From positions 44,330,001 through 44,394,000 of the forward strand of contig CM060733.1 in the NCBI GenBank assembly GCA_030704615.1: a DNA stretch of 64,000 nt. The letters run 5' to 3'. The translations under genes were made by a program, and so were the position numbers. The notes under the pieces were generated by a model. It was not told where the DNA came from. It saw nothing but the letters and a program-made list of their open reading frames with translations, and searched no databases. Origin of the DNA: Takakia lepidozioides (lineage: Eukaryota > Plantae > Bryophyta). This document shows, in pieces, positions 8,140 through 64,000 of the stretch. Within the stretch, counting starts at the first letter, position 1; each line of letters opens with the position of its first letter.

Positions 8140-9945
8140 GTGTGGGGCCAGATTCATCCAAGAGGGCCAGATTTCAAGCACAAGATTACGTATGATTCCC
8201 TGTGGATCAATAGCTACAAGAAACCTGCATGCGTAGATGGTCAACTAAAGGCAGCAGCTGCAGCGGCACAGTTCATAAAATCAGGCACCTCAACCATGAC
8301 CATAGCTTCCGGAAGAGGATCAAGAGAGGGAGTCCACAATGCCTCTTCTGGCACTTCTGGGCATGTGAAGATGCAGGAAGACTGAAAGAGGCTCTACGGA
8401 CTTTAAACCAAGGAGGCATTTCAGCAGATTCAGAAAAGTATGTCTGTCTCTTGCATAAGTGCACCAAGATGAAAGGCCTTGAAGCTGGAAAGCAAATGCA
8501 CACTCACATTATCTAGAGTGGATTTAGCCAAATATTTTTTTACTCAACACCCTTGTCAACATGTATGTTAAGTGCGGGAGCATCATGGATGCTCACCAAG
8601 TGTTCAACAGAATGCCTCAACCATCTTTGATCACGTGGAATATAATGTTGGCAGGATTTACCAAGCATGGGTGTGGTACGAATGCTTTGGAGACCCATGA
8701 GCAAATGATGCACGAAGGGGTGAAGCCCAACCACATCACATTCGTTTGCGTTTGCAATGCGTGTGCAAGCCTGGGAGCCCTGGAAACAGGGAAATAGGTC
8801 CATGATGACATCGTCAAGGCTGGAATTGTACCAGATGTCATTCTAAACTCTGCCCTGGTGGACATGTATGCCAACTGTGGGTGCATTAAGGATGCAAAGG
8901 CAGTTTTCAACAATACGTAGGCTGAACAAGATGTGGTGTCGTGGAGCGCGATGCTTGCAGGGTATGCACAACAGGGACGTGGGGTGGAGGCTTTGGAGAC
9001 CTATGAGCCAATGATGGGGAAGGGGTGAAGCCCAACCACATCACGTTCGTTTGCCTTTGCAATGCGTCTGCAAGCCTGGGAGCCCTGGAAAAGGGCAAAG
9101 AGGTCCATGATGACATCGTCAAAGCTGGAATTGTACCAGATGTCATTCTGAACACTGCCTTGGTGGACATGTATGCCAAATGTGGGTGCATTAAGGATGC
9201 AAAGGCAGTTTTGAACAACAATATGCAGGCTGAATGAGATGTGGTGTCGTGGAGCGCGATGCTTGCAGGGTATGCACAACAGGGACGTGGGGTGGAGGCT
9301 TTGGAGACCTATGAGCAAATGATGGAGGAAGGGATGAAGCCCAACCACATCACTTTTGTGTGCGTTGCATGTGCAAGCCTGGCAGCTCTGGAAAATGGCA
9401 AAGGGGCCCATGGCTCAGGGCTGGAATTGTACCCGATGTCATTCTAAACAATGCCCTCGTGGACATGTATGCCAAATGTGGGAGCATCGAGGATGCAAAG
9501 GTAATGTTCAACAATATGGCTGCATGAAATGTGGTGTCATGGAACGCGATGCTTGCAGGGTATGCACAACACAAGTGCGGGATGGAGGCTTTGGAGACCT
9601 ATGAACAAATGATGGTGGAAGGGGTGAAGCCCGACCACATCATATCTGTGCGTTTGCAAGCCTGGGAGGCATTTCAGCAGATTTAGATACGTTTGTATGT
9701 CTCTTGCTTGAGTTCATCAAGATTAAAGGTCTGGAAGCTGGAAAACAGATGCACATTCACATTATCCAAAGTGGATTCACGCCAAGGATGCGAAGGGAGT
9801 TTTCAATACTATGGCTGAACAAGATGTTGTGTCCTGGCATGCGATGCTTGCAGGGTATGCACAGCAGGGACGTGGGTTGGTGGCTTTGGAGACCTATGAT
9901 CAAATGATGGGGGAAGGGGTGAAGCCCAACCACATCACGTTTCAT
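8140..9945 (+). pseudogene. PLS-PPR pseudogene (truncated, no E/DYW)
   Basis: PPR triplets are split across frames (8561-8797, 9025-9237, 9241-9447, 9811-9945) with stops, deletions and an internal rearrangement at ~9665-9785. Ends abruptly at KPNHITF. Confidence 0.85.
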
Positions 9946-44299: not shown

Positions 44300-44860
44300 T
44301 TTCAGGCACTCGCGGATAATACGTCTTCAGTGCTGAGTCTACTTGTGGAGGTTTTCTTGTGTGAAGTCCTCCGCCATCTCAATTTCCTGAATCTCCTGCA
44401 TCTGCTGCAAGAGCTTTCCAAGATGATACATATCTGACGCCTTGGTATATAAACCACCCTCTTCTAAGGTAGTCTCATCCCAATTCTGATGCATGATTCT
44501 TGGAGCCTCCTGATCACGTCCAGCACTTTCCATATCAATAATGACCCACCTCGTCCCGCCTCAGGGCCATGCACTTTCACAATATTTTGCCACCGAAGAT
44601 CACGGTGTGTGAAGTTGTTCTTGTGCAGCTCTTTGAGACCACAAAGAACATCATGGACTGCCGGCCTCACCTCGTTTTGGTGTGGTTGTGCCTACTTCAT
44701 ATTGAAACTGTTGTCGCGTACAGAAATCTTGTAGATAGGAACAATGCAGCGCATCCTAAGACTAAGGAAGAATGGGTCACGCGTAGAAATTGAGTGGCTC
44801 TCAATAGGCTCAGCACTGCTGAACATTATTACTTCAAGATTCAAATTCAAGATTCACGTG
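44300..44860 (-). pseudogene. Crinkler (CRN)-type protein kinase remnant
   Basis: HDVLCGLKELHKNNFTHRDLRWQNIV, DMESAG and YTKASDMYHLGKLL across two frames, with an upstream in-frame stop. Confidence 0.6.
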
Positions 44861-44970
44861 AACAATAGCAAACCTCTAACATGTTCTCTTCATGAGCATC
44901 GATTTAATCCTTCGAATTTCTGTTCCAATGAGGTTACATTTTTCATGAGCTATTTTTTTGGGGGGGGGGG

Positions 44971-45667
44971 TGTCGTGCGCATACATATCGCTACACAACT
45001 ACATCGCTGTCCAAAACCACACAACACATGTGCACACCACAGACTAGTATACCACTAGTCCACCACTAGTCCAGCCACTAGTCAACCACTAGGCTACAAC
45101 TAGTCAGTCACTAGGCTGCACTATGCTGCCACTATGGCAGTCACTAGTCCACACAATGATAAAGAAGAAGAATACAAGCACAAGCTCATGCGAGCTCACA
45201 AAGCTGAAGCATAAACTCATGCATATATAACCTCATCACTCAAATACAAGTCAAGCCAAGTGCACCCCACGCCATGGGGAATCCACACTACGGCGCCATA
45301 GCTAGGCGCGGTGAGGCTCAACTCGAGAAAGATGAGCCTCCCGCGCTTGCCGTGAAGATAACCACTCCAGGGCCTAAATCTGCCTTGACCCCTGGATTGA
45401 CACTTGGGCCAATCCCAAATGTCAATATGTAAAAGCTAGCTATTTCCTAGCTAGTTTCACACTAGTGGTAAAATAACTTGACAGCTGTCGTGCGCATACA
45501 TATCGCTACACAACTACATCGCTGTCCAAAACCACACAAACATGTGCACACCAACACTAGTATACCACTAGTACCACTAGTCCAGCCACTAGTCCAACCA
45601 CTAGGCTACAACTAGTCAGTCACTAGGCCACTATGCTGCCCACTATGGCAGTCACTAGTCCACACAA
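44971..45667 (-). repeat. 3' terminal repeat block A-(GC)-B-A
   Basis: A at 45486-45667, GC spacer at 45484-45485, B at 45157-45483 (327 bp), A at 44971-45156. A is rich in ACTAGT motifs. A PPT-like AGGGGGCGA (plus strand 45668-45676) directly precedes the inner A. Confidence 0.9.
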
Positions 45668-45925
45668 TCGCCCCCTAGCTGGTGCTTAGGTCCCTCTAAG
45701 TCCAGGTAGCCACAAGATGTGATAGTGACCATAGCCTCACTAAGTCCTCCACCACTATCCCTACTACACTCAAACTCGATAGATCAAGAGGCCGGGTGCA
45801 AGAGTTGCCCCATCGTTAGTCGCCGTCTTGCAACCTGTGAACTTGAGCTTGGGATCTCATGTATTGACTCCTATGAGCTTGGCCTCCCATGTCTTGTTAG
45901 CTGCCTCCAGTCATGTCCACTGCCA

Positions 45926-46068
45926 CTATCCCAAGCAGTGTGGACACAACCAATCTCCGTCAGGAACCTTCTCAAGAGGTGGTGTCAAGCATCCCATATG
46001 CCAACCCTTGAGCATCGATCACACACCAGCATGGTGGCTGCCCCTTTGGCAGACCCACAGAGCATGCA
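45926..46068 (-). CDS. PHD finger at the integrase C-terminus (frameshifted)
   Basis: Manual translation across a 1-nt shift gives CMLC-GSAKGAATMLV-CDRC-SRGW-HMGC-LTPPLEKVPDGDWL-CPHC-LG*, the canonical C4HC3 pattern with the conserved W. Not shown in the ORF track. Confidence 0.85.
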
Positions 46069-47300
46069 CCTCAAAACCTGCAGGTACCACTGCCAAGTTT
46101 GGGTCAACTCTGCCATCGACATTGGGAAGGTGACATGGCGCACAATTACGCACATGGTCCTTCCAAGTCATGCCATCCCGACCCTCCAAGATCAGGACCC
46201 CTGAGGGCAACACCTCTCGAACCCTCAGAATAACACGCCCTGCAGTAACATCCAGAGTCGTAGGAGCAGTCTGCTGCAAATAAACATAGTCACCAGGGCT
46301 AAACCTCCGAACCCCAGGACGATATCCTCCACCACGTATAGTGGCATACCTCAACGTATCACGGTGCTGTGCAATGGCAAGGTTCTCAAAAGCCATGGGC
46401 ATGACTTTCTTGAACAACTCTGCACGCTGATCACATGCACGTACCCACACGTCCGGATCGTCAAGGTTAAGGACTTGAGCAGTGTCCCTACGAATGGCTG
46501 CAGGCAAATCCGGCTCTCGGCCAAAGAGAAGGAAATATGGTGAGAAGGAGGCAAGTGATGCTTGTTTGCTGAACCTGTAGCCCATGGCTAACCAAGGAAC
46601 CTGAAGATCCCAATCTCCTAGGTGTCCCTTCTGCAAGCCATACTTGCGCAAACCCCTCTTCACCGTCTGAACAACTCTCTCTGCTAAGCCATCGGCCTCA
46701 GGATGATCCGAGAAGTGGTGCGTGGTCTATCAAGGCTTTATCACACAAAGCCTGAAACTCCCCAAGAACTCTCTCCCTTGGTCCGTGAGTACCTCAGCTG
46801 GAGCACCAAATCGGCTAAGCACACGATCCAAGAATGCATACGCAGCCCCCTCACTAGCCTTGTCAGGCAATGGAACCAACTCAATCCACTTGGAGAAGTG
46901 CTCCACCATCACCAACACATATCTGTGGTGGCGCATAGTCAGTGGCAACGGTCCTGCGAAGTCAAGACTCCACCTGTAGCCCAATCCCATGATTGGTAAA
47001 GGATGCAACTGTGGTGTAGGGGCGTTGAATGAAGCACGCACCCTGTCACACACCATGCACCTAGCCACGAACTGTTGCACCTCTGTATGCATACCACGCC
47101 ACCAATACTGCCCCTGCAGTAAACTGTGAGTGCGTCGCACTCCAAAATGCCCCAACTCCTCATGGGCATGCCGCACTAACCGTGCACGCTGTGTGGGGTG
47201 AGGCACAATCCTCACCCGACCATCCTCCCACACTCGAAGTAGGTGTATCCCCTCCCACTTGAACCTCTTGGCTCGTTGCAGGATCCGATCCCTCTCCCTG
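46069..47300 (-). CDS. Retroviral-type DDE integrase
   Basis: HEELGHFG...CMVC zinc site, WSLDFAGPL, VLTDQGREF, HPEADGLAER and SPYFLLFGREP. Frameshifted. Confidence 0.92.
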
Positions 47301-47304
47301 GCAG

Positions 47305-48900
47305 TCACATGGCTGCCGTGTCTCCCGTGCGGAGGTAGTCCAACACAGCCGAATCCTCATGTATATCTCTGGCACCACCTGGCTCATCACTAGCCTCAGG
47401 GTCCTCAGACACTCCGTCTACAGTCATCCCTGTTGTAGGTCCAACCTGACCTCCGATGCCAAGATACAAAAATGCAGATGCGTGCCATCCCGGCACCATC
47501 TCCTCGTCCGTCTCACCATGCCACCGAGCTCCAGTGTCATCCTGCTGGCTCATGCATGGATTGCGACTCAATCCATCCGCATCCCGATTGACCAAACCCG
47601 GTCGATGCACAACCTGAAAGTCATACTCCTGGAGTATAAGTGCCCACCGTGCAAGCTTCCCCGTAAGCTTGTCTGACTCCATCAACCACTTGAGTGGCTG
47701 GTGATCCGTGACAAGGGTGAAAAGATTGCCGTATAGATAGCACCTGAAGTGTGCCACGGCCCACACTGCAGCTAAGCACTCTCCCTCATATGAGCTGTAC
47801 TTAGCCTGCAGCGTTGTTCGAGCGGCTAGCGTAAGCCACTACGAACTCTCTTCCCTCATCATCCACCTGTGTGAGCACCGCTCCAAGCCCAGCATGCTCC
47901 AATCCGTATGCAGCTGAAAGGGACGCCCCCTGATAGGTCGTCTCAAGATAGGCGCCGAGGTCAACCTCGCCTTGAGCTCTTGAAAAGCTCGTTCTGCTCA
48001 TCTTCCCACTGCCACTCCTGGTCCACCTTGGTCAGCTTGGTTAGAGCCTTTGCAATGGTACTAAATCCCTTGACAAACCGTCTATAATAGTTTGCCAACC
48101 CCATGAAAGCTCGAACTCGGCTCACATCCGTGGGGCGTGGAATTTGTGCAATGGCCTCTACCTTAGTCTGCTGTACCCCCAATCCTCCAGGATATATCAT
48201 GTGACCCAGATACTCAATCTGGTTGTGGAAAAACTTGCACTTCCCCGGATGCAACTTCAATCCGTGCGCTCTCAAGCGCTCCAATACCACCTGAAGGTGT
48301 CTCTCATGCTCCTCCATCGTAACACTAAAGATGATGATGTCATCTATGTAGCACCGAGCAAAGTCCCCCTGCTAGAATCCTATCCATGACTCTCTGAAAC
48401 TCTGCAGGAGCATTCTTAAGCCCAAATGGTAAGAACCGCCACTGATATAGGCAATCCTTGCCGTGCTCATTGATCCCCCAGAATGCCGTCTTCTGCTTGT
48501 CCGCCTCCTTGATTGGCAACTGGTGATATCCGGATCGTAAATCCAAAGTGCTAAAGGCCTTAGCATGCCCGATGGCATCAAAGATCTCCTCTGGTGTTGG
48601 CATGGCATACTTATCGGACTTGGTCTGACGATTTACAGGCCGGTAATCACCGCACATACGTCTCTCCGTCCAATTGCCATAGACATCCTTCTTGGCTGGC
48701 ATCACTGTGGCTGAAGCATACTCTCCACCAGAGAGCTCCACCAAACCTGCCTCCCAGAGATCTTGAGTCCTCATCTGAATCAAAGACCTCTCCATGTCAC
48801 TGTATATATAGGGTCTCCGAAAGATTGGCGTGTCAGTGGCCAACTCAATACGGATCTCTTGACCCTTCAGTGCTCCCAAGTCCTTCAAACTGAAGGCAAA
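47305..48900 (-). CDS. Gypsy reverse transcriptase and RNase H
   Basis: RMCGDYRPVN, LDLRSGYHQL, LPFGLKNAPAEFQR, CYIDDIII (~48331-48354), YLGH, FMGLANYYRRFV, VAYASRS and TDHQPLKWL...NRDADGLSR. Several frameshifts. Confidence 0.95.
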
Positions 48901-49351
48901 AGCAATTCCTGTAAGCCCTCAGGAACCGCCGTATACGTCGTCTCTCCTCCGGTGACAATGGGTCCAATGTCAGGCTCCCAATTGTCCTCCGTAACTGCAA
49001 CCTTAAGTCCAGTGGGCTTAGAGGTAGAGGACGCGTCCAGTGGTTGCTATGTTGCAACCTCTTGAGCAGTACTCCCTGCCTGCTCAGTCAATGACAAGGC
49101 CTCATCCTGCCCATCATCTCATCCTTGAGGACCTCCTCAACCCGAGAAGAATCCCCAACCTCATCCATCACAGCCGCCTTGGCTGCCAACTCCCTCTGAA
49201 CCTCGAGCACCTCCCACGTGTGCCATGGATGCATGCACCCCGTGGTCCTCACATGCTCGCCCCCACTCACTGCCTGTACCGTCTCGGTAGGCAGAGAGAC
49301 CATTGAGGGAAGTGTACTCCGCACTCTGCGTTGCTCAGCCAGAGCCAAGCT

Positions 49352-50283
49352 GATAATCCAGGTCAAGCAATTGAGATCCATTGCTTGCCCCAACACTTGA
49401 CGACGTGATGCCTCAGAAAGAGACGACACCGCGTGGTACCAGTGGTAAAACCATTGCCCGCTCACGCTCGTCAGCATTAGGCTCCACTAACTGCTGCAAC
49501 TGAGCATCCCACAGGAGGCCAGGTCCACTATCCGGAAAGCATGCGATCCTGGGAAGCTGAGCAGTGTAGGTAATGCTGCTCGTGGTTGACCCACCTTGTT
49601 GACCACTGCCAAAGGCGAACGGTCATCGTGTCTCACACGCTGAGACTGCCTCCCTGTGTCCAGAATTATCCACTGTGAGATGTGCTGGCCGCTGCACCCC
49701 ATCAAATGCACGCTTGAGCAGTGCGGGTGGCATCAAGTTAGTCCACCATAGCCGTGGACGATGAGCCCGTGACCCCACTGTAGCTGCATCTAGCAACACT
49801 GCTGACCCAAGCCACGACCGGACTTGATGCACACTGGCCATCACCCTGGCCCGAGAATCGCCCATCAGTGGCACATTCTCCAAGATGTATGCTGGAGATA
49901 CAGCTTGATGAAGCTGCAAGTGGCGCAAAACCCGCACCATCTCCCAAAACAGACCCGACCTCGAGTCTCGCAATCCATTGCCATGCCCGGCTGATGAATG
50001 CCCTTGGCAGGGCCAACCTGCCACTACCAGATCAATGGAGCCAACCCGCTCCAAATCTGCCCCCAGCAACGAAATGTCTGCTGGCAAGGCCTGCTGATAT
50101 CCACGAATTGCAGACACCGACAACAACTCAGGGTACCGCTGCACCAACTGAGCAACATGGCGAAGTGAAACGCGTCGTGCAGTCTCATCCCTCTCCACAT
50201 ACAGGTAACGCCGAACTCGTACACCTGCTGTAACACAGCAGCCAATCCGTGCTGATCCCGCCAAACAAGTCCAGAAGACAAAT
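49352..50283 (-). CDS. Cytosine-5 DNA methyltransferase domain embedded in the pol region
   Basis: Motif I LLDLFGGIS, motif II YVERD, motif IV AGWPCQGHS (catalytic PC), GLRDSRSGLF, motif VI ILENV, motif VIII AHRPRLWWTN, motif IX-like EPNADERERAM and motif X LGQAMD, all in canonical order. Confidence 0.92.
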
Positions 50284-50759
50284 GCCTTCATCCGGATACT
50301 GCCACACAATAGGTGTGGTGTCCAATGGAGACAATTGAGGTGGTCCTGGTGCAATCCCCACACTCTCCTCCTCTCCTGACGGTACAAAAGCCTCCACCCA
50401 GGCTTGTTGCACCCGTCGATCAGCATCCCGCTGCAAATCCTTGCTCGTGCCCCACAATGGAGTCTGAGCAACCATGGTAGGCAACTCCGCCATACCATAC
50501 ATGTCATGCTCTCCGGAGGTGGTACATCCTCTGAATGAGCATTGCCCTCAAGCAACTCTCTAGGCCAACTCACTGCCGCTGTGAATGCTGCTAGTGTCGG
50601 CATCTTGCCTCGCTGGGCAACCGCAACTCCTCCTATGAACGTCACAGGGAGCTGCACACGCCGGCCCTCCCCTGACTGCCATGCAGGCCTATAGGAAGCT
50701 GACTCCTCCCAAAAATCCAGGGTGAAGCCCATGGGGTACAACACTGCCCCACCAACCAG

Positions 50760-53195
50760 GACATCGTATGAGACGCGTCTGTCACAATGGCCTTGGCTCG
50801 CATCACTGAGCCATCTGTAGGGTGATCCGGCCGTAGTCTGATAGCCAACTCACGCCGTGTCATGCCCCGAGCCTGCTCCGATCCTCCCAGAGACGTCTGT
50901 ATCTGGAAAGGACAAGGCTCCATATCCGCCTCCGTGAGGCCCAAGCCTGCAATAGCAGCTCTGCCCAGCATCAATGGCTGAGCTCCCGAGTCCAACAAGA
51001 CCCGCAGTGGCCGGTACCTCTTGCCTGCCGGTCCACTCAAACAGAAAATGCCATCCTGGTTGTCTAACATGACAACTCCAGGTGTCACCATGGCGCGCTC
51101 AATGGCTGGCCTAGCTGGCAGCTCCATCAACCTGGCAGCTGCAGCTTGCCATGGCGCCGCCGTGGCAGTCTTGACCCTCAAATCCGAGGATCCCTCCGGC
51201 ACTACACCTCCCACTATCTCCGCAGAAGATGAAGTAACCTCCCCACTCTCACAGAGTGTAGCTGCCAGCCTGAACACCTCAGCTGGTCTTACCCCCGGCG
51301 TCGCAATCATGGTAGCCGAGAACAATGGAGCCTGGCACACAGATGTGGCCGCTCCTAGCAGCACACTAGCTGCCGTAGCCTTGGCAACACTAGGTAGTGG
51401 TGCTACCCGTGTAGCTCTCCCCAATGGCATAGTAACCTCCGCCTCGGTAACAGTCGGGCGAGAACTAGGTGCCATGGATGGCGTCGACACTGTCTCCGCC
51501 AATGTGAATGACTGAGGAAGCCTAGCCTGACGGCTTGCCTCCCCACGCTGTGGATCCAACTCCACCTCTGCACCTCGTGGCTCAGGAACTCGTGCTGCTC
51601 CTCGAGTCACGGCTGCAGCAGACTCCACCTGCACTAGTGGTAGTGCTGCTCCACACATGAATCCCATGCCTCCCATATCTCCTCCCTCAGGAGCAGGAGG
51701 TGGACCATCCGGCCTTAGAGCCGGTACCACCTGAGCTGTAGCCATGGCAGCGAGCCTCTGCTCTAGCTGCTGAAGCCGGTTGGCCATGCCTTGGTCAACA
51801 CCTGACCTCCGCGTCCTTGGCCATGTTGAGCTTGCCCTTGGCCTGCACCTCGTGGCTGGCCACCTCGTCCTCTCTGGGCTGCCACCTCGCCCCCGGCCAC
51901 CATTGTTCCCTTGGAACTGGCCTGGGCGCAACTCAGGATGCAAACCATAACACTGGGCCTCTCCATGCCCGTGCTTGCCACAATGCCCACACTGCAACTG
52001 TGCAGGCTGTGCATGTGCCGCCCTTTGCCTCCCTCTGGGCAATCCTTCTTGACATGGGGTCCTCCACATGTCCAGCACACCACATCCGCCCGTTGTTGGC
52101 CAGCAAATGAAGGGAGAGACCCCTGCATCTGAGGTCCTCTCTGCCCTTCCCTGAGCTTCACCTGAGCCCCCTTGTTGCCTTGAGCACGTTGAGGTAGTGG
52201 TTGGCTAGGAGCACCACTACCCCGTGGTGTCTCCTTAGCAAATCCCACCATGACCACTCGTTCCTCCACCATGTTGAGCTCTATCCGCTCTGCCAGCAAA
52301 AACACATTTGCTAAGGTGGGTTGGGCCGCTTGTAGGAGAGTTGCATCCCGCACCCTTCTCCTCAGCTCCTTGTCCAATATCCCATACCAGAATTGGACTG
52401 CCTGAGCTTCCGTAACCCCTTGGGTTACATTTATCAAGCGCCTCATGCGAGTGAAAGCCTCCCTCAAGCTCTCGGTCGGCTTCCGTTGGAACTCTTGCAA
52501 GCTCCGCAACTTCTCTGTCCTCACCCCTTGGTAGTTCCCTCTCAACTCTTCGAAGAACTCCACAACAGGGTTGAAGGCAGGCACGGGTGCTAGTGCTGGT
52601 GCGGTAGTGGCTTGGGTGGACGTCGTAGCTACTGTACCACAGTCCCACTGCTACTTGCTGAAGCTGCCGGTGCAGCGGCAGGTGTAGCCACTGCCCTCGT
52701 GGCTCTAGTGCCCCTAGTGATGGAGACATAGTCGGGTGACCAGTACATCCTCCACTCCTCGATCTCAACCTCATGCCCCGCCTGAACTCATGGTAATCAT
52801 CCATAGGCGGCCCCTCAAGGTGCTGAAACAGCCCTTCCATGCCATGAAAGGCGTAAATAGTTGTGGATTGCGCATTTGCTGCAAATCACACCAACTATCA
52901 AACTCTTGGATAAAATCATCCAACTCGATGGTGCCCACCGCCCCAGAGTACCTTCGTGGCCCCTTGGTAGCTCCATACATCTCCTCCATTGTGTCCCACA
53001 ACAATGGCAAAGAAACAACTTGCACCGCCGGTATGAGTCCTCCTGATTCACAATCCGAATCAGAACCTTCCGTAGAAGACACAGGAGGTGAAGGTGGCCT
53101 AAACCGCACACCTGTCTCGTGTACCCACTAGTATCGCTAGTGCTCGAACCGGCACTGTCCCCAGCAACTAGTGGCACCTCCGTGTTGACACTCAA
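50760..53195 (-). CDS. Gag (two zinc knuckles) and aspartic protease
   Basis: Gag-like VVEFFEELRGNYQGVRTEKLRSLQEFQRKPTESLREA, knuckles CWTCGGPHVKKDC and CGHCGKHGHGEAQC, and protease VLLDSGA (~50980-51000). Frameshifted. Confidence 0.88.
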
Positions 53196-53859
53196 CCGGT
53201 CATGAACATGTCCCTAACCCCCTCTCCACAAGGTAACCGGGTAGAGAACCTGTTGCGGCTTATGGTTTGGAATACTAAGTTTAACATAGCCTACACCTGT
53301 ACCTGCATCCACCGCAAGCACTCCTATGGTTGGCTGGTCATCACCTCCAACCTCACCACATGAGAAACAATGATGGTCTGGCTGGTCATCACCCCAGCCT
53401 CACCATCGACAGCATGCTCTAGGACTGGCCGGTGATCAAATCCGGACCAATCACCTATAAAAACAAGCGCCCACACAAAACTAGCATGGCGCACAGTCAA
53501 GCATGCAGGTATGGAGGGGATCCAAACACAAGAAATCAGAACGACAACTCCCCCACACCAAAAACAACTCCACGGTGTTGCTCCTGCAAGGACACCCCAG
53601 CCCAAACCCGGACTGACTCTTGCCTCCACCTACGGAAAGGTCTTGGCCTAATGAGAGGGTGGAAAACTACGAGGAAGAGAAGCTAAAGCAATGCCTAACC
53701 CCAGCATGCCCTCATCCCAACACTCTTCCTCTCCTCTCTTCCCTCACTTGCATGACCATGGGATATCATGAAGATACTCCTCAACCGCCCTCCACGAGCT
53801 TCAAAATTCGGCCTTCCAGACCACATGCCAGTCCTTAGGCAGTCCACCAGTGCCTCCAC

Positions 53860-54450
53860 GAGTCAGCACAGGTCCACAGGTCAACACGGGCCACCACAGA
53901 CCAGCACAGGCCCACACAGCTCACTGGTCACAGCCGTCACAGTCCCACAGGCCACTGGGCCACAGCCCCTCATAGCCCGTCACAGGCCACAGCCTGTGAC
54001 AGCCCGTCACAGCCCCACAGCACACACAAGCCCGTCACCACCTGTCCGTCACCACAGCTGTTCACAGCCCCACAGCCTCAGGCACGGGCCCACAGCCCGT
54101 CACAGCCCAAAGGCCTCAGGCACGGCCTGTCACAGCCCCTCACAGCCCCACAGGCCACGGCACCTGTCCCACAGGCCAACATGTCACAGGCCACAGCCTG
54201 TCACAGCCCGTCACAGCCCCACAGGCCACAGGCACATCACAGCCCCGCACAGCCGTCACAGCCCCACAGGCCACAGCCTGTCATAGCCCCTCACAGCCCA
54301 AGCCACGGGCACAGCCCAGCCCCTCACAGCCCGTTCAGGCACGGCCTGACACAGCCCGCCCGTCACAGCCCCAAAGGCCTCAGGCACGGCCTGTCACAGC
54401 CCCTCACAGCCCCTCACAGCCCCAAAGGCCTCCGTCACAGCCCTCACATG
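53860..54450 (+). repeat. Degenerate minisatellite (cacagccc / gtcacagccc units) in the retrotransposon 5' leader
   Basis: Dozens of cacagcc and cacaggcc units visible directly in the sequence. Confidence 0.9.
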
Positions 54451-55960
54451 GCCGCTCTGGCAGTTTAGCCATTTCTCCAAGGGGTTTAGCCACGCCAAGC
54501 TAGGGTTTGTGTCTCTTGGACTCTAGGCTTCTTTCCACCGAGCTATGGCGGCTGTGAAGAAATCAGCAAGGTATTCTTGCTCTTTCGGCTCCCACACACC
54601 ACCATAGTAGCCCTAAGCCATGAGGTGGTTGCCACAAACCAAGCCTTCTTTCTCACTTAGCCTCCCCAAACACGCCACTAAACTCAATGGCAAACAACCA
54701 AGCCCTGCTGGTTCCCAGCCCTTGTGAGCACTCATTCAAGCACTCTCCTTGGCCATAGCATCTGTTTTAGAGCCTATTCCAGCCCCCTACACCTGCTGCT
54801 TCAAGAGTTGCGCTCCCTTCAAGCTTGAAGTTGAAACCCCAACTCACATAGGCCCTACAAGTGCTTTTCTTTCACTCCAAGTGGAAACCAGCCCTAGACC
54901 TTCCGTTCTAGCTCTCTAAAGCTTGAAAACAAGAGCCTCAATGGGCTGAAGGCATGCTCCACACATGCCCCACACTCTCACCATAAGAGAATCAGCTCAT
55001 TTGCTTCATTTCTTGCACCCACAAACCTGAAAATACAAGCTTCAGCAGGCTGAAAGCATGCTCACATGCCCTATAGGGAAACCAGCCCCTTCCTTCCTTT
55101 CTTGCACTCCCACACCTGAAAGTGCAAGCCTTCACCAGGCTGATAGCATTCTCCACACATGCATTGCCCTCACATAATGGAAATCAGCCCTTCCCTCTTC
55201 CTTGCTTGCCCTCCAAGCTTGAAGATGGAAGCTTCAATGAGCTGAATACATGCTCCACACATGCAACCTCTTCACACAAGAGATATCAGCCCCCTATCTT
55301 GGCTCCTTGGCTCCTTGATGCTCTCTAAGACAAGACTAAGCACTCCACAGCCTTTGCCAACTCCTGAAACCCTAAGGCTTACATTTCCAGCCACAAGACA
55401 CTTCTTGTGGTGCAAGAGCTCTTCTTCCAAGCTCTGAAACCCTAGGTGCACATTCCATGGCCTTGCCGCACCTCTTAGCTCCTGTTCCAGCCCTGCTCTT
55501 GCCATGACAAGAGCCCTCTCAATGCTGAAGCTCGAGATTGAAACCCAATCTCACCATACTCCACAAAGTGCACTGATTTGCCCCAAGCCAAATCAGCCCT
55601 TTCGCTTGGTCTTGCAATCCTTCACACAATGAAAGCTCGCATTCCCAAGTCCAGTTCTCAGCTTTGCCACCAAAGCCACTATAACCTGCTCTTGACTGGT
55701 CCTCTTCCCAATCGTGCTTGCTCATGCATGTACACAATCTGAAACCATCAAGGTGCTCTGGAATTACCTGCAGCATGGTGCTTTCATCTCTGAAGCTGAA
55801 GATCGAATGCCAAGGTCTACCACCTCGTAACCCACATCGCCTCCGCTTCTAACAACCAAGAGCTCCACGGTGCTCCTTGCATAACAACTTGGTTTCTCTC
55901 ATTCTTAAGCAAAAACCACAAGTGCTACAACTAACTCGTATCTGGCACTCACAGATACGA

Positions 55961-55976
55961 GCTCATCTTTCTCGAG
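55961..55976 (-). promoter_or_regulatory. Primer-binding site complementary to the element's own LTR (self-priming type)
   Basis: Element-strand (A)CTCGAGAAAGATGAGC abuts the 5' repeat, lacks the TGG start expected for tRNA priming, and is the exact 17-nt reverse complement of an LTR segment (plus-strand 56141-56157). Confidence 0.8.
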
Positions 55977-56303
55977 TGATAAAGAAGAAGAATACAAGCA
56001 CAAGCTCATGCGAGCTCACAAAGCTGAAGCATAAACTCATGCATATATAACCTCATCACTCAAATACAAGTCAAGCCAAGTGCACCCCACGCCATGGGGA
56101 ATCCACACTACGGCGCCATAGCTAGGCGCGGTGAGGCTCAACTCGAGAAAGATGAGCCTCCCGCGCTCGCCGTGAAGATAACCACTCCAGGGCCTAAATC
56201 TGCCTTGACCCCTGGATTGACACTTGGGCCAATCCCAAATGTCAATATGTAAAAGCTAGCTATTTCCTAGCTAGTTTCACACTAGTGGTAAAATAACTTG
56301 ACA
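55977..56303 (-). repeat. 5' terminal repeat B (327 bp)
   Basis: Starts TGTCAAGTTA and ends TTTATCA. Matches 45157-45483 except for one substitution seen (ccgcgctCgc vs ccgcgctTgc). Confidence 0.95.
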
Positions 56304-57256
56304 GGGGATTTCTTCCTGTAATACCGATCCAATAGCTTAAAACTTCTCTTTCTTATACTACACTCTCCTCAATGAAGCGATAATGATTGTCAATATGTTT
56401 TGTGTGAGTACAATGAACTAGATCTTTTTTTGGTGTATATGGCTTTGATGTCAATGAACAATGGAGTGACCCATGGGTGTAACTTAGGGAAAGCCAATTT
56501 CGTAGCCAAATTACATGTTAACTCAATGTTGCCTGTAACAATGTCTCAGCCTCTACGATCGATTAAACAATTATCAACAACTGTCCGTTGCTTGCTACTA
56601 GTAATTATCGCACATTCTCGAGGTGGATCGTTGGTCATCCCGTTCGTCTGCCCAGTTTGCATCAATATGTATATCATTGTATTTAATTCACATAACACAC
56701 CGGAGCCTAGATGCCTTGAAAGTGCTGCAAAAGGAAGTCAACATGGAAACATACGTTGTGGAGGATTGTATTCCAAACATCCCTCTGGGCTGTCCGGTAA
56801 ATTGCAGTTGGTTTTTGGCAGTGCACAGAAGCAACTCTTTAAACTTCAACGAAAGTGTCATGACATCCTTGACATGCCCCTCTTTGAGCTAGAGGAGCTG
56901 GAGAAATGTGCTGGGCCGTAACACGCTTTAGCAAGTTAGAGGTGTCCTAAATTGGGGAGTGGTTTGCTCTTGCAGGTGGAATTGCACGTACAGTGCTTTA
57001 TGGGCAAGTTTTGGGCAACAATATAGAATGAAAGATGAACTTGCGTGATGCCATCAAAATCAAGTGTACTCTATAGATAGTTGTATACTTGATCACTATC
57101 TAAAGTCTGGGGTTGGTCACAAACTGACTCAATCAAGGTTGCATAAAATGACTCTCTAGGGACTAAACACATCGGCATCACGTCATGACTGCACGTCTTT
57201 GCATCATTTTACGTCATTATTCTTTGAATATTTTGGAATATTCATGTCATGTTACG

Positions 57257-60200
57257 TGTCAAGTTAAATAAACACAGTGTGAAACTAACTAGAATAAAGC
57301 TAGTTATTTGTATTTAACACTTGGATTTAGTTCAAGTGTTAAGTCAGGTGTCAAGTTTAGCTTGACACCTGAACCATCTTATCTTCACGAGAGCGTCAGT
57401 CGTGCGGCTCATCTCTCTCAAGTTGAGCCTGCACGACCGAGCTCCTTCACTGCTTAGAATCTTAGTGTGCTTATGAAGGGAGAATAGGATGTTGTGGGGT
57501 GGAGTCCCCATAGCTTGGGGTGCCCCTGGCTCGACTCTTAGTTTAACGAGTGATGGTGTTGTATTTCATGTCCTTGTGTCAACAGTGTGACTCTAGTTTC
57601 CAATCACTCGAGAGAGATGAGCTGTCTAGTTTTGGTAGTGCTAAGCTAGATAGATTTATTTTATGTTAGCACTATGTCGATGATATTTGAAGTAGGGAAA
57701 GCACAACTCGTAATGAGTGGTTAAGATAGAAGTCATTGTTGCTCGTTTCGTTTGTAGTCCGGTACGATGTTGTGCACGGGAGGCACGCAGGATGCCAAAT
57801 AAGAGGCGAGATGGAGGCTTGGACAGCCTCGTAGGCTCTGTATATACAAAGAAGGAGCTGCAGTTGTGCGGACAAATCAACTCGTAGTTGTTGACGGTAA
57901 ACTTCTTTTCTTGGGTAAGACTTGTTCTGTTTTGCCCGAGGCTTTGGACCTCGAGGTGGATTGTGGAGCATAATGATCGTGGAGTACACATGTTGAAGGC
58001 AGTCCCCATTATGAGAAGAGAGGGGGGGCTGTAGCGAAAACCGTGTGAAGTCTTTCTCTGATAACTACTTGCGAAGCATAGGGCGGGCATAGCTGGGAAC
58101 AGCGTCCAAATTGCACATATAAGTAAGCTGAGAGCTGGAGAACGGCGAGAGGTAGCTCGGAGGCTGGAGCCATGTTAAAAATGCTGAGCAGTTCGAGCAT
58201 TTGCACAATAATAAAGTACCGTGCAGAGAGGAAAGCATCAGGGCGTGACGCTTGGGGGACAGGCCCGTGATCAGACTTGTAGTTAGCTTGACATACACTT
58301 AGGGAGTGTGATGCCGTTGGCGCACTCGTGGACATCCTGTGTTTCGCAGACAATCAGCTACTGCATAAGGCAACTTCGACAAGCAGTAGGGCCTTGGTAG
58401 AGTCCAAATGGAAGCTTCTTCAGCGTTGGCGTGCCTACAAACAGTGGGCGATTTGTGCAAAACCTCGAGCTGGGGAACGTCAAGCAAATGCAGGATCCGT
58501 GAGTGGGGCAAAGGTGTCGGTGTGTGTGCCGTGTGATGAGCCATATTCGACCAGTTGAGCAGACGGGGGGCCACATGGCATGGAGCTGTGTGTTCTGGCT
58601 TATATTTCTCTCTACCATGTTCATACATGCGTTGCTGAGTTGAGACAGTGCCCTGTGAGAACTCCAGGGACGCAGCTTGAGCGTGCAAGCGGATGGGTAG
58701 CCGGCTGTGAATGATCATTGAAAGGTAAAGAAACAACAAGAGCAGACTATGGAAAGATAGCTTAAATGAAGCTTTGAAAGGAGGTTGAACTTGCTGAGCA
58801 GGTAGAGGAAAGAGGGGTACCATGGCAGCTGCACATCAGCGCGACGAGTAGGAGCTCGCGCCATGGCGCCTGCCTTAGCTAGCAAGTAAGCAAGGATCAG
58901 AGGGCAGATCTGCCACACCACCAGGCACCTTGCAGAGTGGTCGAGGCACTCATACTTCCGTGCACTGCAGCAGGGTTTCCACATAGTCGACGGGCTTGAA
59001 GAAAGGTTCCAGCTGGGGATCACTCAATTTGGACATTGATAAGTTGGTGTGCGGGGCAGGCTTTGCAGGAACTTGCTTGCCAGCTTTACTTCAATGAAAA
59101 TTGTGAGGGTGCCAAGGTGAGGTGTTGCTAAGGGGAAATGAGCTCCACGACCTCCATCGTCAAAACGGTTTGTGGTAGAAGACGGTTGGGATTCCAAAGC
59201 ATGGTGAGCTGTTGAACTCAAATGAAATGGAGGGGAACGGCAGGCACGTGGCCAGGGAACCTAGGAAACCATATAGAACTTAGGGAACCGGGGGACAGTT
59301 ACCAGATATTTTGGGTGTAACTTTGAATTTTAAATTTGAAAACCAAAAAAAAAAAAAAAAACCCTTTTGATCTAATTTAAATGATTTAGAGCCTAATTGG
59401 TCATATCTTTGTCAAATGGACTCCGTTTGACTCAGTTTTTGGGGGGATAGCTGTAGAAAGGGGAAATCTACCTATCTAAACTTTTTGGACTCTGCTAAAA
59501 ATCTATGGAATTTTTTGAGTGTGAGTGTGAGTGTGCTATGAAAGATCCACAATTCTGTTTCTAGAACCTGTTGTGGTCTATATGAGAGACAAATATGTGG
59601 ATGTCCTCCTTGTATGGCTGGGGGAAATGAGGACGTAATTGAAGGGCAGGTCTCTTCTCCTACCTGTGCACACAAGGGGACAAGATTTGTTTCTCAAGGA
59701 ACTCAGACTGATTTGAGTGGAGAGCAGTTGGACGAGTTTTGATTGCATACTGGGAGTCGACATTAGCAATAGACAACAAACTGTTGTAGTTGGCGTTGGG
59801 GCCTCAATATTACCTTGGGACAGGTCAAAACTCTGTTGGAGCAGCAGTTCTGCAGCTGTAGCTAAATCCAAAGTGGGTGAAAGCTAGGCTTGGAACACAG
59901 CCAAGACAGCCCCGGGACCAAGGTGTTCATCCACAAGGTCGTGGTGTACTGGAGCAAGGAGCATGAGCTGCACAAGTTTTGCAATCAACGTGGTTGCAGC
60001 CGAACACGTTCTACAACGAGGCACCACAACGGGGGGTTCTTAGACAAACACTTGTTCTGCTGAAGTAGATGCAGTCATATCGCAACGAGGACACCCGCAC
60101 CGCTCAAAGCTTCGAGTTGAGAACTGTCAGACCCTACATTTATTTTCTTTAGTATTCAGTGAGCGGGAGATAGGGGAGTATTGTTTTGTCTCTAACCTGG

Positions 60201-63200
60201 CAGAGAGAGGAGGATGGTTGGTTAGAGCGAGCTAACTATAGCTTGGATAAGGTTGTGGCAGTTTCTGAATAAGATTACCTCTAAACCTTACCATCATGCC
60301 AGATGAGGCACTTTAAGAGAGTCTGGCAGTTGTAGCATAGATCAAATTAAATCTTGCTTGGTCGACCTCTATTCTTTCCTTCCTCTCTTTACTATTTTCA
60401 TTACTTGTACTTGTAGTTGCCAAAGCCTCTTTTGGTGGAGGCCGTCAGTCCGGGTTTTTTGGGCTGGGATATTCTGCAGGAGCAGCACGGTGGAGGGATT
60501 TGGTGTGGGGGTGTTTGATGTTTTGGTTTCGGTGTTTGGATCCCCTTCCACACCTGCATGCTTGACTGTGCCCATGTTTGGTTTTGTGTTGGCACTTGCT
60601 TCATAGGGATTAGGCCGGATTTGCTCACCGGTCAATCCTAGCGTATGCTGTCGGGGTGAGGCTTGAGTGGTGACCAGTAGACCACCAGTGTTCCTTCTAT
60701 GGTGAGCTGGGTTTGATGACCAGCCAACCATAGGAGTTCTTGCGGTGGATGCGGTGCAGGTGCCCTTAGCCAGTGGGATATGACCCTTAATCGCAACAGG
60801 TGCTCACCCTGTCAACTATTAGAATTAGTACTAGAGCCTTATAGTGTCACATGCGGGAGGTGCGGGTTGTGAGTGTCATCACGGATTTCCCAAGGTTTTG
60901 AGGGGAGTACGGCTACAGGCATTAGCAGTGAGAGTGGGTTCACCAGACGGAGGTTGTCGTTTCAGACCACCTTCACCTCCATCCCTCATTAGTGCAGAGT
61001 CCAGACACAGACTCGGAGGCTTCATCAACAATTGTGGCAGTTTCATTCCCGCCATTGTTGTGGGACGACATGGAGGAGATGTATGGAGCTAACCAAGGGG
61101 CCTCGTAGGTATCTGGAGCTAGGGCACGATCGCTGGATGACTTTATCCAAGAGTTTGACAGCTGGTGTGATTTGCAGCAGATGCGCAATCCACAGCTGTT
61201 CACCACCCCATTCATGGCGTGGAAGGGACTGTTCCAGCATTTGGAAGGCCCGCCTATGGACGATTACCACGAGTTCAGGCGAGGACATGAAGCAGAGATT
61301 GAGGAGTGAAGGATGTATTGGTCCCTGACTACGTCTCCATTACTCGAGGCACACGCGACCAGTAGCTGCATCAGCACCAATATCTCCCACTGCAGCACTA
61401 GTAGTGGAACAAGTAGTGCCGTACTTTTGCAGGTGGTACCATCAAAAGGTGCCTACTACTTCTCCTGCCACGACTACAACACATGTGCCTAGATTCAACC
61501 CGGTGGTGGAGTTTCTTCCAGGAGTTGCGGACGAACTACCAAGGCGTACGGATAGAGAAGCTGCGAAGTTTGCAAGACTTCCAGCGCAAATCCAGTGAGA
61601 GCTTGCAAGAGGCCTACACTCGTATGAGGCGCTTGATAAGTGTGACCCAAGGGATTACTGAAGCTCAGACAATCCAGTTCTGGTATGGAATTTTGGACAA
61701 GGAGCTCAGGAGAAGGGTGCGGGATGCAACCCTGTTACAAGCAGCCCAACCCACATTAGCAGATATGTTATGCTGGCTGAGCGATTGACCTCAACATGGT
61801 GGAGGAGCGAGTTGTTACCATTGGATTTGGCAAGGACATGCCTGCACGGGCACAGTTGCCAGCCAACAGGCACAAGGGACTGCCCTCATACGTGGTCAGG
61901 GGGGCAAGGTTCCCAACCCAAATTCCATAGAGCTTGCAGGGGAACCTCAGGTGCATGAGGCCAGTAGCATCTTTTTGCAAGCCAACAACAACCAGGGGTG
62001 ATATGTTTTGGACATGTGGAGGACCCCATGTCAAGAAAGATTGCCCAGAGAGTGGCAAAAGGGCCGGCACAAGCACAGCCTGCACAGTTGCAGTGTGGGC
62101 ATTGTGGCAAGTATGGGCATGGAGATGCCCAGTGTTATGACTTGCACCCTGAGTTGCGGCAAGGCCAGTTCCAAGGGAACAATGGTGGCCGAGGGCAAGC
62201 TGGAGCACCTCAGAGAGGACGAGATGGTCAGGCACGAGGTGTAAGATGAGGGCAAGCATGGTATGGCTAAGGATGTGGAGGTCAAGGCGTTGACCAAGGC
62301 ATGGCCAACCGGCTTCAGCAACTAGAGCAAAGGCTTGCTGCCATGGCCACAGCTCAGGTGGTACCAGCTCCAGACCTGAGGGTCCACCTCATGTTCCTCC
62401 TCATCAGCGTCATCCCTGACGGAGGAGACATGGGAGGCATGGGATTTATGTGTGGGGCAGCACTACCACTAGTGCAGGTGGAGTCTGCTGCCGTCACTCA
62501 AGGAGCAGCACGATTTCCTGAGCCACGAGGTGCAGAGGTGGAGTTAGATCCATAGCGTGGGGAGGCAAGCCGTCAGGCTAGGTTGCCTTAATCATTCATC
62601 TTGGGGGAGACAGTGTCGACGACATCCATGGCACCTAGTTCTCGTCCGACCGATACAGAGGCCATTATTGTGCCATTTGGAAGAGCTACACCGTGCAGCA
62701 CTGACACCTGCTGCCAAGGCTAGTGCAGCCATGTGTTGTTGGGGGCAAGCCACCCTCTGTGTGTCAAGCCGCACTGTTCTCTGCAACCATGATTGCGACG
62801 CCGGGGGTAAGACCAGCTGTAGTTTTCAGACTAGCAGCAACACTCTACGAGGGTGGGGATGTCACCTCATCTTCTGCGGAGTTAGTGGAGGGTGTAGTGG
62901 CAGATGGATCCTCCGATTTGAGGGTCAACACTGCCACGGCTGTGCCATGGCAAGCTACACTACAGCTGCCAGGGTGACGGAGCTTGCCAGCTAGGCCAGC
63001 CTTTGAGCGCGCCATGGTGACACCTGGAGTTTCTTGTTAGACAACCAGGAGGGCATTTTCTCTTTGAGTGGAACCGGCAGGCAAAGGTACCGGCCACTGC
63101 GGGTCTTGTTGGACTCGGGAGCTCAGCCACTGATGTTTGGGCAGAGCTGCTATTGCAGGTTTGGGCCTCATGGAGGCGGATATGGAGCCTTGTCATTTCC

Positions 63201-64000
63201 AGATATAGACATCTCTGGGAGGATCAGAGCAGGCTCCGGGCATGACACGACGTGAGTTGGTCATTAGACTACAGCCGGATTATCCTATCGATGGCTCAGT
63301 AATGCGAGCCAAGGCCATTGTGACAGATGCAGTCTCTTATGATGTCATCGTTGGTGGGGCAATGTGTATATCCCATGGGCTTCACCCTGGATTTTTGGGA
63401 GGAGTCAACATCCTACAGGCCTGGATGGTAGTCAGGGAATGGTTGTCGTGTACAACTCCCTGTGACATTCATTGGGGGTGTTGCTGCTGCCACGAGGCGA
63501 TGCCCCCTAGCAGCCTTTACAGCTGCAGTTAGTTGGCCTCGAGAGTTGCTGGAGGGCAATGCCCATCAGAGGATGTGCCACCTCCAGCAAAGCAAGATGA
63601 CATGCATGGTACGCGGAGTTGCCTGACATGGTTGCTCACACTCCATTGTGGGGTACGAACAAGGATTTGCAGCAGGCTGCTGATAGACGGGTGCAACAAG
63701 CCTGGGTAGAGGCCTTTGTACCGTCAGGAGAGGAGGAGAGTGCGGTGATTGCACCAGGACCACCTCAGTTGTCGCCATTGGACACCACACCTCTTGTGTG
63801 GCAGTGCCCGGATGAAGACATATGTCTTTTGGACTTGTTTGGCGGGATTAGCATTGGATTGGCTGCAGTGCTGCAGGCAGGTGTACGAGTTCGACGTTAC
63901 CTATATGTGGAGAGGGATGAGACTGCACGATGCGTCTCACTGCGCCATGTTGCTCAGTTGGTGCAGCAGTACTACTCTGTTTGTTGTCAGTGTCTGCAGT
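57257..64000 (+). mobile_element. Second, diverged member of the DNMT-Gypsy family (5' part; runs off the window end)
   Basis: B-type repeat at 57257-57606 (TGTCAAGTTA...CAATCA), PBS at 57607-57622, leader homology from ~60425, gag from ~60900 (NYQGVRIEKLRSLQDFQRK, two knuckles), protease VLLDSGA at ~63105, and DNMT motifs I-II (ICLLDLFGGISIG, YLYVERD) at ~63820-63920. Has stops and frameshifts. Confidence 0.9.

Follow-up and report, generated by a model that had tools for sequence, protein, structure and literature searches.

The 64-kb window (the whole stretch of Takakia lepidozioides DNA that was analysed) contains two Ty3/gypsy elements of a bryophyte-like type whose coding region includes a cytosine methyltransferase as well as a PHD finger. 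These elements probably prime reverse transcription with the first 12 to 13 bases of their own RNA, join the ends of their cDNA, and integrate after cleavage of an internal palindrome. In both elements the PBS is complementary to a segment of the element's own repeat (the anti-PBS), and the repeats of element 1, which lies on the minus strand, follow the split order A-PBS-ORFs-PPT-B-A-B (Table 1).

Table 1. Features of elements 1 and 2, in positions of the window
Feature	Positions	Strand	Remarks
Element 1
Target-site duplication, 5' copy	56304..56307	-	CCCC on element strand
Repeat A1	55977..56303	-	327 bp, TG...CA, element 5' end
TTATCTT core-promoter-like motif	56175..56181	-	28 nt above predicted start; putative function
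Hairpin around anti-PBS	56126..56166	-	z -4.75
Anti-PBS, predicted self-primer	56141..56157	-	core 56153-56141
Downstream partner of hairpin 3' arm, for RNA starting at anti-PBS	56072..56077	-	predicted
PBS	55961..55977	-	core 55977-55965; exact pairing
10-bp stem after PBS	55935..55961	-	z -5.16; overlaps PBS by one base
gag region	51763..52885	-	frame-broken; Pfam Retrotrans_gag E 0.0022, below curated cut-off
C5 cytosine methyltransferase domain in pol	49370..50255	-	PF00145 E 1e-12; tblastn
Reverse transcriptase + RNase H	47329..48903	-	frame breaks
Integrase (H2C2 + rve)	45929..47320	-	PHD finger at C-terminal 46135-45929
Polypurine tract (PPT)	45668..45676	-	directly precedes B1, not A2
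Repeat B1	45486..45667	-	182 bp, GACA end
Palindromic B/A junction GACA-GC-TGTC	45480..45489	.	predicted integrase cut site
Repeat A2	45157..45483	-	one mismatch to A1
Repeat B2	44971..45156	-	element 3' end, fused straight to A2 end
Target-site duplication, 3' copy	44967..44970	-	within longer C run
Element 2
Repeat A1	57257..57606	+	350 bp, TG...CA, no preceding B
TTATCTT motif	57379..57385	+	32 nt above predicted start
Hairpin around anti-PBS	57399..57437	+	z -5.16
Anti-PBS	57407..57423	+	core 57411-57423
PBS	57606..57622	+	pairs to own repeat
Stem after PBS	57622..57653	+	z -3.16, 1/200 shuffles as stable
gag-protease region + methyltransferase start	60434..63998	+	80% identical to element 1; leaves window

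The coding regions follow the Gypsy order PR-RT-RH-INT with a DDE integrase, the best solved relative being Ty3; the protease was recognised by eye and by alignment only, as Pfam gave no protease match in the window. The PHD finger was called by Pfam on homologs, and the end of the element 1 integrase is PHD-like; a Chromo domain was found in none of five homologs. The methyltransferase was matched by tblastn in 57 of 84 sequences. No relatives were detected among viral contigs. In a quick RT-RH tree that contains no Tf1, sushi, or Tcn1 sequences, element 1, filling 38% of the columns, falls into a 37-row clade (SH-aLRT 98) together with three Klebsormidium nitens proteins, which need not be KnitGypsy-Dnmt3 itself. 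The latter element, in the relevant passages of de Mendoza et al. 2018 (PMC5890265), has Gypsy domains and, within pol, a cytosine methyltransferase, and a figure legend of that paper describes its repeats as DIRS-like, A-coding-B-A-B. The elements described here share the methyltransferase in pol (assigned as C5, PF00145), the repeat order, and the Gypsy domain order; for KnitGypsy-Dnmt3, neither those passages nor three text supplements describe a PBS, the way priming occurs, a target duplication, or a mechanism behind the repeats.

In element 1, PBS and anti-PBS are perfectly complementary (17 of 17 positions); in element 2 they pair at 16 of 17, one pair being changed on both sides relative to element 1 (A-T to G-C) and another being a C.A mismatch, both as claimed in the first-pass annotation. 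The longest exact pairings, 17 nt in element 1 and 13 nt in element 2, compare with at most 10 nt in shuffled repeats (300 base shuffles per repeat). The pairing had been assigned to the element's own LTR; it does lie in the element's own repeat, but this 327-bp repeat is only part A of the split A...B-A-B arrangement and not a complete LTR. Three further families among the relatives have different PBS sequences, each still complementary to its own A. Of 27 rows put through a blind duplex scan, 9 scored above every one of the 40 resampled controls; these represent seven distinct elements from four families with different PBS sequences, in a set of loci that is redundant and comes from few hosts. 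The 18 unsuccessful rows all belong to one old moss-type family, where the expected site is still the best match in 7, the anti-PBS carries deletions in 5, and the PBS is missing in 1. Covariation, proposed earlier as a check over more copies, is weak within that family (19 of 500 shuffles score as high, and 70 of 500 do so for pairs changed on both sides). In three DNA runs, neither 13-nt core has a variant at 2% or above among the variants listed, and PBS base 14 is variable (17 to 42%) and uncompensated; judging from the sequences, the functional duplex looks like one of 12 to 13 bp rather than 17.

Priming by a host tRNA or tRNA half, with the internal match a coincidence, is hardly credible, and the same applies to an origin of the layout by nested insertion or assembly artefact. 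Neither PBS begins with TGG, and four different PBS sequences are each complementary to their own A. Copies B1 and B2 of element 1 do differ at 9 gap positions, compared with a single mismatch between A1 and A2, which hints at assembly errors; however, the repeat layout and target duplications recur across independent assemblies and families, and both joints are found in contigs of public runs. A reading in which element 1 is nested in a small, independent element B was discarded, since the target duplication is found beyond A1 and B2 and since B diverges together with A across families.

The TTATCTT motif is common to elements 1 and 2, and a TATA-like motif is found 28 to 32 nt upstream of the pairing core in six of seven folded elements. 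This spacing would place the RNA start at the anti-PBS; the predicted start base was picked after the pattern was seen, and since pairing continues for 3 to 7 nt above it, the true start may be a few bases higher. Tf1-type elements are primed by the 5' terminus of their own transcript, and Tf1-like self-priming by a 12- to 13-nt primer appears likely here as well. The earlier claim of tRNA-independent self-priming is thereby supported, because the PBS varies among the four families and yet keeps its complementarity to the element's own repeat. When folded from the predicted start, the PBS duplex has a probability of 0.55 to 0.87 in all seven elements. The predicted folds consist of the central duplex and a U5-end stem, with the leader folding on itself rather than pairing with R. 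The Tf1 "pretzel" has three duplexes, since the sequences on either side of the PBS each pair with the LTR; its third duplex was not found in these folding predictions. ARAGORN detected no tRNA in the 64-kb window, and an Rfam search over 44800-58000 gave one match, at chance level (E 0.98).

The anti-PBS hairpins were found in both elements where the first-pass annotation had drawn them, none of 200 shuffles being equally stable in either case, and the 10-bp stem 3' of the element 1 PBS is likewise present. The hairpin is kept in three of the four families; it is missing in the L077/L068 family (z 0.11 in L077), which retains the PBS duplex. Two variants in the hairpin 5' arm occur at matching depths, and a shifted bulge could preserve the pairing. 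Hairpin and duplex are mutually exclusive: the duplex probability falls to 0.00-0.16 in the five hairpin-bearing elements when the whole A is folded, and with at least 20 extra upstream bases in element 1 the hairpin wins outright (duplex probability 0.00). These observations would fit an RNA that starts upstream of the hairpin and is licensed for priming by a change from hairpin to PBS duplex, or a softer version, with gating via start-site choice, for which Tf2 offers a precedent. Such a switch nevertheless seems unlikely, given the TATA-like spacing, the hairpin-free family, and the identity of the primer with the RNA 5' end in Tf1-type elements. An RNA that begins at the anti-PBS would lack the 5' arm of the hairpin at its 5' end and would have no alternative fold to switch from. 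The switch proposed earlier is supported in part; the 5' arm probably lies upstream of the start. In the folding models, it is more likely that the hairpin masks the 3' copy and any transcript started upstream.

The ends of the insertions differ from those defined by reverse transcription. Four-base target duplications flank the start of A and the end of the last B, perfectly in five of seven readable insertions and with one C/T change in the other two; those seen are CCCC, TCTC, CATA, TACA, and ATTA. Together with the lack of TGG after CA, they led to the rejection of Phygy, a tRNA-primed plant gypsy (PBS to tRNA-Trp, 81%; NCGN target), as a match; Troyka, whose members live in animals and have CG ends and LTRs of the ordinary kind, was judged unrelated. 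The end of A1 coincides with the PBS, the start of B directly follows the PPT, and the A2/B2 joint consists of the A end plus the bases that follow the PPT. The palindrome at which B and A meet is conserved. Of 44 rows, 28 (2 of them doubtful) carry the junction motif behind the PPT, compared with 0 of 49 in-pol controls; its two-base spacer was seen in 26 of 42 rows and reads GC in 16.

A symmetric two-LTR circle, formed when host repair ligates the ends after self-priming and then opened at either B/A junction, is an alternative from which A...B-A-B could be derived by circular permutation. Small irregularities at some A/B joints (L016, L022, L065, L082), most joints being precise, and A...B forms with target duplications (L021, L034), which fit one-LTR circles, are in line with it; the A...B forms are equally explained by recombination between B1 and B2. 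A two-LTR circle predicts, however, that A-B-A...B should be as frequent as A...B-A-B, whereas B precedes the 5' A in 0 of 18 distinct 5' flanks and B1 is followed by an A in 26 of 42 rows. Two loci with B-A-PBS after pol and a length of about one unit (L003 and L081) were taken as collapsed circular assemblies, not as A-B-A; they were counted for PBS pairing and the junction and left out of the flank count. Host ligation thus appears rather improbable, and the preferred, inferred route for joining the ends of the cDNA is a directional jump of the plus strand.

The repeat order is that of Ngaro, PAT, VIPER, and TATE (A1...B1-A2-B2), which use a tyrosine recombinase, and the precision of most joints could mean that the A/B joint is inherited through RNA and copied as in such split-repeat elements, the PBS pairing being a leftover or an aid to strand transfer. 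In contrast to those elements, the ones described here have a DDE integrase, TG...CA ends, 4-bp duplications, a PBS, and a PPT, and no tyrosine recombinase was found in the eight ORFs scanned. The ends at the PBS and after the PPT are those defined by a reverse transcriptase, and strong-stop DNA from the PBS would reach A2 and bypass B2, which makes inheritance of the joint through RNA very unlikely.

In the preferred scheme, transcription would begin some 30 nt downstream of the TATA-like motif, at the anti-PBS of A1, and the 5' 12 to 13 nt of the RNA would pair with the PBS, stacked on two more stems, to be released as a primer by RNase H, as in Tf1. The 3' copy, A2, has the upstream arm and is predicted to conceal the duplicate primer in the hairpin. 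Because of the positions of the PBS and PPT, ordinary reverse transcription would yield cDNA with B-GC-A at each end. The 3' end of the plus strand (the A end) would then jump to the start of B, creating the A/B joint and a third B/A junction. Within GACA-GC-TGTC, integrase may cleave each strand behind its CA, which would give retroviral-type ends at the positions observed and insert A...B-A-B with a 4-bp target duplication.

The comparison with the Tf1/sushi group (Tf1/Tf2/Tj1 and others, including the Tcn1 clade of mosses) made in the first-pass annotation holds for the mode of priming and fails for membership. Both have a PBS directly after CA that is complementary to the element's own R, and a predicted multi-stem structure at the primer. 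Tf1/sushi elements, however, carry a chromodomain at the integrase C terminus, where the elements described here have a PHD finger, and are bounded by two complete LTRs, whereas here the duplication is placed beyond A1 and B2, and the insertion ends differ from those set by the PBS and PPT; the hairpin arm upstream of the primer, able to mask it, is a further addition. The proposed cleavage resembles that by foamy virus integrase, which cuts palindromic 2-LTR circle junctions (PMC1180852) at an internal CA-nn-TG to give processed ends. The foamy virus palindrome is the joint of natural cDNA ends, whereas here each copy carries it as a fixed internal sequence, and the insertion ends are distinct from the natural ends of the cDNA. 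Work on HIV-1 (PMC1905944, PMC4372172) addresses the same subject.

Self-priming and the split-repeat layout have each been published separately, and their link was not found in the literature searched. Programs that look for LTR pairs would misplace the ends of such elements, calling A1-A2, where there is neither a PPT nor a target duplication. The elements extend self-priming to a chromodomain-less lineage that the consulted part of a plant survey does not list as self-priming, which points to convergence or an older origin, and they suggest how the split repeats of Gypsy-DNMT3 could come about, an arrangement so far just a figure drawing in the passages cited. The chances appear about even that they represent a green-lineage Ty3/gypsy clade with insertion ends uncoupled from the ends of reverse transcription, that is, self-primed, with a directional plus-strand jump and a DDE integrase that obligately cuts a built-in palindrome. 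If so, this clade would have converged on the layout of tyrosine-recombinase elements, and joined, circle-like DNA would be a genuine integration precursor of a natural retroelement; if integrase must cut the internal palindrome of the joined cDNA, the role of circle junctions as true integration substrates would become testable in a natural, high-copy element.

The coding region of element 1 comprises a weakly matching gag, a C5 methyltransferase, RT, and RNase H, together with an integrase that carries H2C2 and rve domains and terminates in a PHD finger. Its closest named RT relatives are found in the liverworts Calypogeia and Marchantia and in Sphagnum, which makes a bryophyte host likely. 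In a quick tree, built without a Tf1 or Tcn1 reference, it belongs to a clade of 37 rows (SH-aLRT 98) that also contains proteins of Klebsormidium, of Closterium, and of chlorophytes (P0114, P0119, P0125, and P0127; Haematococcus by source name and Tetstr1 gene models). Two loci of this eukaryotic retrotransposon clade, L081 and L082, come from an assembly titled uncultured Synechococcales cyanobacterium, likely owing to plant contamination of the bin. The ORFs of element 1 carry frame breaks, which may be assembly errors, although its two copies of repeat part A, A1 and A2, differ by a single base.

The 327-bp repeat A1 is only a part of the terminal structure of element 1, which reads A1, primer binding site (PBS), ORFs, polypurine tract (PPT), B1, GC, A2, B2, with the PPT directly before B1 and not before A2. 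Among 82 related loci, which are redundant and come from few hosts, the full A...B-A-B layout is repeated in L016, L017, L019, and L077, and B...B pairs are found in about ten more. The layout is already known at the family level, since a figure legend in de Mendoza et al. (2018, PMC5890265) describes KnitGypsy-Dnmt3 as combining Gypsy domains with repeats of the DIRS type. Between B1 and B2 there are 9 gap positions and 1 mismatch, reflecting either an assembly error or separate origins of the two copies. Related loci also contain an inverted part-copy of A after A2 (L037, 3699-3878) and an A with no PBS behind it (L008, after 2013). A lone 551-nt B-A-B contig in the public sequencing run X7, about one B+A unit plus the word overlap, represents either a small A-B circle or a repeat that has collapsed.

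Window positions of the elements' terminal and priming features and of other repeats
Feature	Positions	Strand	Remark
Tandem arrays	1-1415; 25353-26864		303-bp unit; inside a larger duplicated block
Tandem array	8405-9937		period ~300 bp
No match to gypsy proteins gathered in the analysis	1-44900
B2, element 1	44971-45156	-
B1, element 1	45486-45667	-
Leader repeats, element 1	53867-54448; 54883-55292		short, degenerate, tandem
Post-PBS stem, element 1	55935-55961	-
Stem variants	55944; 55952
PBS base 14 variant, element 1	55964	-
PBS, element 1	55977-55961	-
Anti-PBS, element 1	56157-56141	-
X7 contig	55975-56304
Anti-PBS, element 2	57407-57423	+
PBS, element 2	57606-57622	+

The PBS of element 1 begins at the last A of the 5' repeat, extends into the leader, and is the exact reverse complement, over 17 bases, of a site in the element's own A (anti-PBS). 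In element 2, arranged head to head with element 1, 16 of 17 bases are paired, with one two-sided change and one mismatch; chance pairing in shuffled repeats reached at most 10 nt (300 trials per repeat). The self-pairing proposed in the first-pass annotation is therefore borne out, and the hairpins around the anti-PBS and the stem after the element 1 PBS are equally real, as the two hairpins and the two post-PBS stems are each far more stable than their shuffled counterparts. Neither 13-nt core of element 1 has a listed variant of at least 2% in any of three DNA runs (6 rows lie outside this list). PBS base 14 varies at 17%, 22%, and 42% of depth, rough values from summed contig depths, and no matching change is listed in the anti-PBS. 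On the element strand, the change is a transversion from G to C, the sole such change listed; C is likewise the base after the core in L081 and in several copies of the moss type. One source could be an unremoved self-primer whose cap is copied by reverse transcriptase, in which case the variant would mark the start site; mutation in a subfamily accounts for it equally well. Two further variants would, only if linked, replace G-C by A-T in the pair that closes the post-PBS stem.

The end region of A was searched blindly for its best duplex with the interior of A, in 27 rows and against 40 resampled controls; all controls were beaten in 9 rows, representing 7 distinct elements of four families. 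The PBS sequences of these families diverge beyond the first bases, yet a duplex with the own A is found, making the tRNA-independent self-priming signal in this Gypsy-DNMT3-like lineage real and well supported. The controls were not beaten in 18 rows, every one from a single old moss-type family; the best match is nonetheless the expected site in 7 of these, and the failing rows include 5 with anti-PBS deletions and one lacking the PBS. Pairing in that family amounts to 85% in the 12-bp core and 53% in the 3-bp extension; the covariation signal is weak (19 of 500 shuffles on score). The pairing and variant data make a working duplex of 12-13 bp probable. In about half of Tf1 cDNAs, the PBS end carries a copy of the primer (PMC11042837), so matched changes may arise through templating as well as selection; either way, they imply pairing. 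In an alignment of related copies, columns 31-62 contain 12- to 29-nt deletions in the hairpin/anti-PBS in 5 of 16 copies (L007, L016, L017, L021, and L038), and the next 152 columns contain one 1-nt gap only, which suggests a hairpin forming in single-stranded DNA or strand transfer erring at the hairpin/anti-PBS.

Plant TATA boxes lie ∼30 nt from the start site. In six of seven elements, a TATA or TTATCTT motif lies 28-32 nt upstream of the core's first A, this reference base having been picked after the pattern was seen. Folding from the predicted start base gives duplex probabilities of 0.55-0.87; with the whole of A folded, they are 0.00-0.16 where the hairpin is present (five elements) and 0.44 and 0.81 in the two elements that lack it. 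In both window elements and the related locus L003, the fold from the predicted start pairs the hairpin's 3' arm anew, with a segment lying downstream, and closes a second stem at the end of A, creating a predicted three-way junction at the primer's 3' end. In the 3' copy of A, the hairpin forms. Since the duplex is favored from the predicted start and the hairpin in the 3' copy, these models place the two structures most likely at different ends of the RNA. The hairpin of the RNA switch proposed earlier is probably a mask rather than a switch. A gate through start-site choice, as reported for Tf2 (PMC5341516), is possible.

The insertion-end survey comprised 14 rows in which both the start of A1 and the end of pol are present. 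Of these, 6 were unreadable (no PPT, cut, or interrupted); the remaining 8 represent 7 distinct insertions, two in the shorter A...B form. A 4-bp duplication, located where A1 starts and where the last B ends, is perfect in five insertions and has one C/T change in two. B1 and A2 meet at the palindrome GACA-GC-TGTC. A fuzzy junction palindrome follows pol in 28 of 44 rows (2 doubtful) versus 0 of 49 control stretches, and A follows B1 in 26 of 42 rows, always after a two-base spacer (GC in 16; GT, AC, or AT in 9; TC in 1). The duplication and the palindrome together argue that the integrase ends are the two halves of this internal palindrome, with the PBS- and PPT-defined ends fused inside the element. 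The A2|B2 joint combines the A end with the bases behind the PPT, usually with one A in common and with small irregularities in a few copies. In public runs, contigs for the element 1 and element 2 families alike show both joints as loose ends.

Directional joining and junction cutting may be the source of these permuted termini. Standard reverse transcription from the PBS and PPT would give B-GC-A at both ends; if the A end were then joined to the B start and a B|A palindrome cut, A...B-A-B would result. A symmetric circle would yield A-B-A...B as often as A...B-A-B, but among 18 distinct 5' flanks, taken from 22 rows of which one has an uncertain start, B never precedes A. Directional joining, in which the plus strand jumps from the end of A onto the start of B and the first and third junctions are cut, would produce the observed form only. 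If both strands were cut behind CA in a staggered manner, the ends would be ordinary processed ones; such a cut on LTR-LTR palindromes has been reported for the foamy integrase (PMC1180852).

Self-priming has been predicted for 12% of plant elements, with Tcn1 and TAR named (Neumann et al. 2019, PMC6317226), and there are published accounts of the Tf1 "pretzel" (10.1101/2022.12.06.519325) and of Tj1 (PMC4600332). The Tf1/sushi likeness initially suggested extends to the mode of priming, which probably works as in Tf1, but not to membership, as two tested features place the window elements outside that group. A 2026 preprint mentions streptophyte Gypsy-DNMT3, its text on these elements being silent on termini, and a literature search, with subscription papers, Repbase reports, and figures outside its scope, found no paper that brings self-priming together with split repeats and junction cleavage for a gypsy element. 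The larger point of this analysis is the permuted termini together with the putative internal attachment palindrome.
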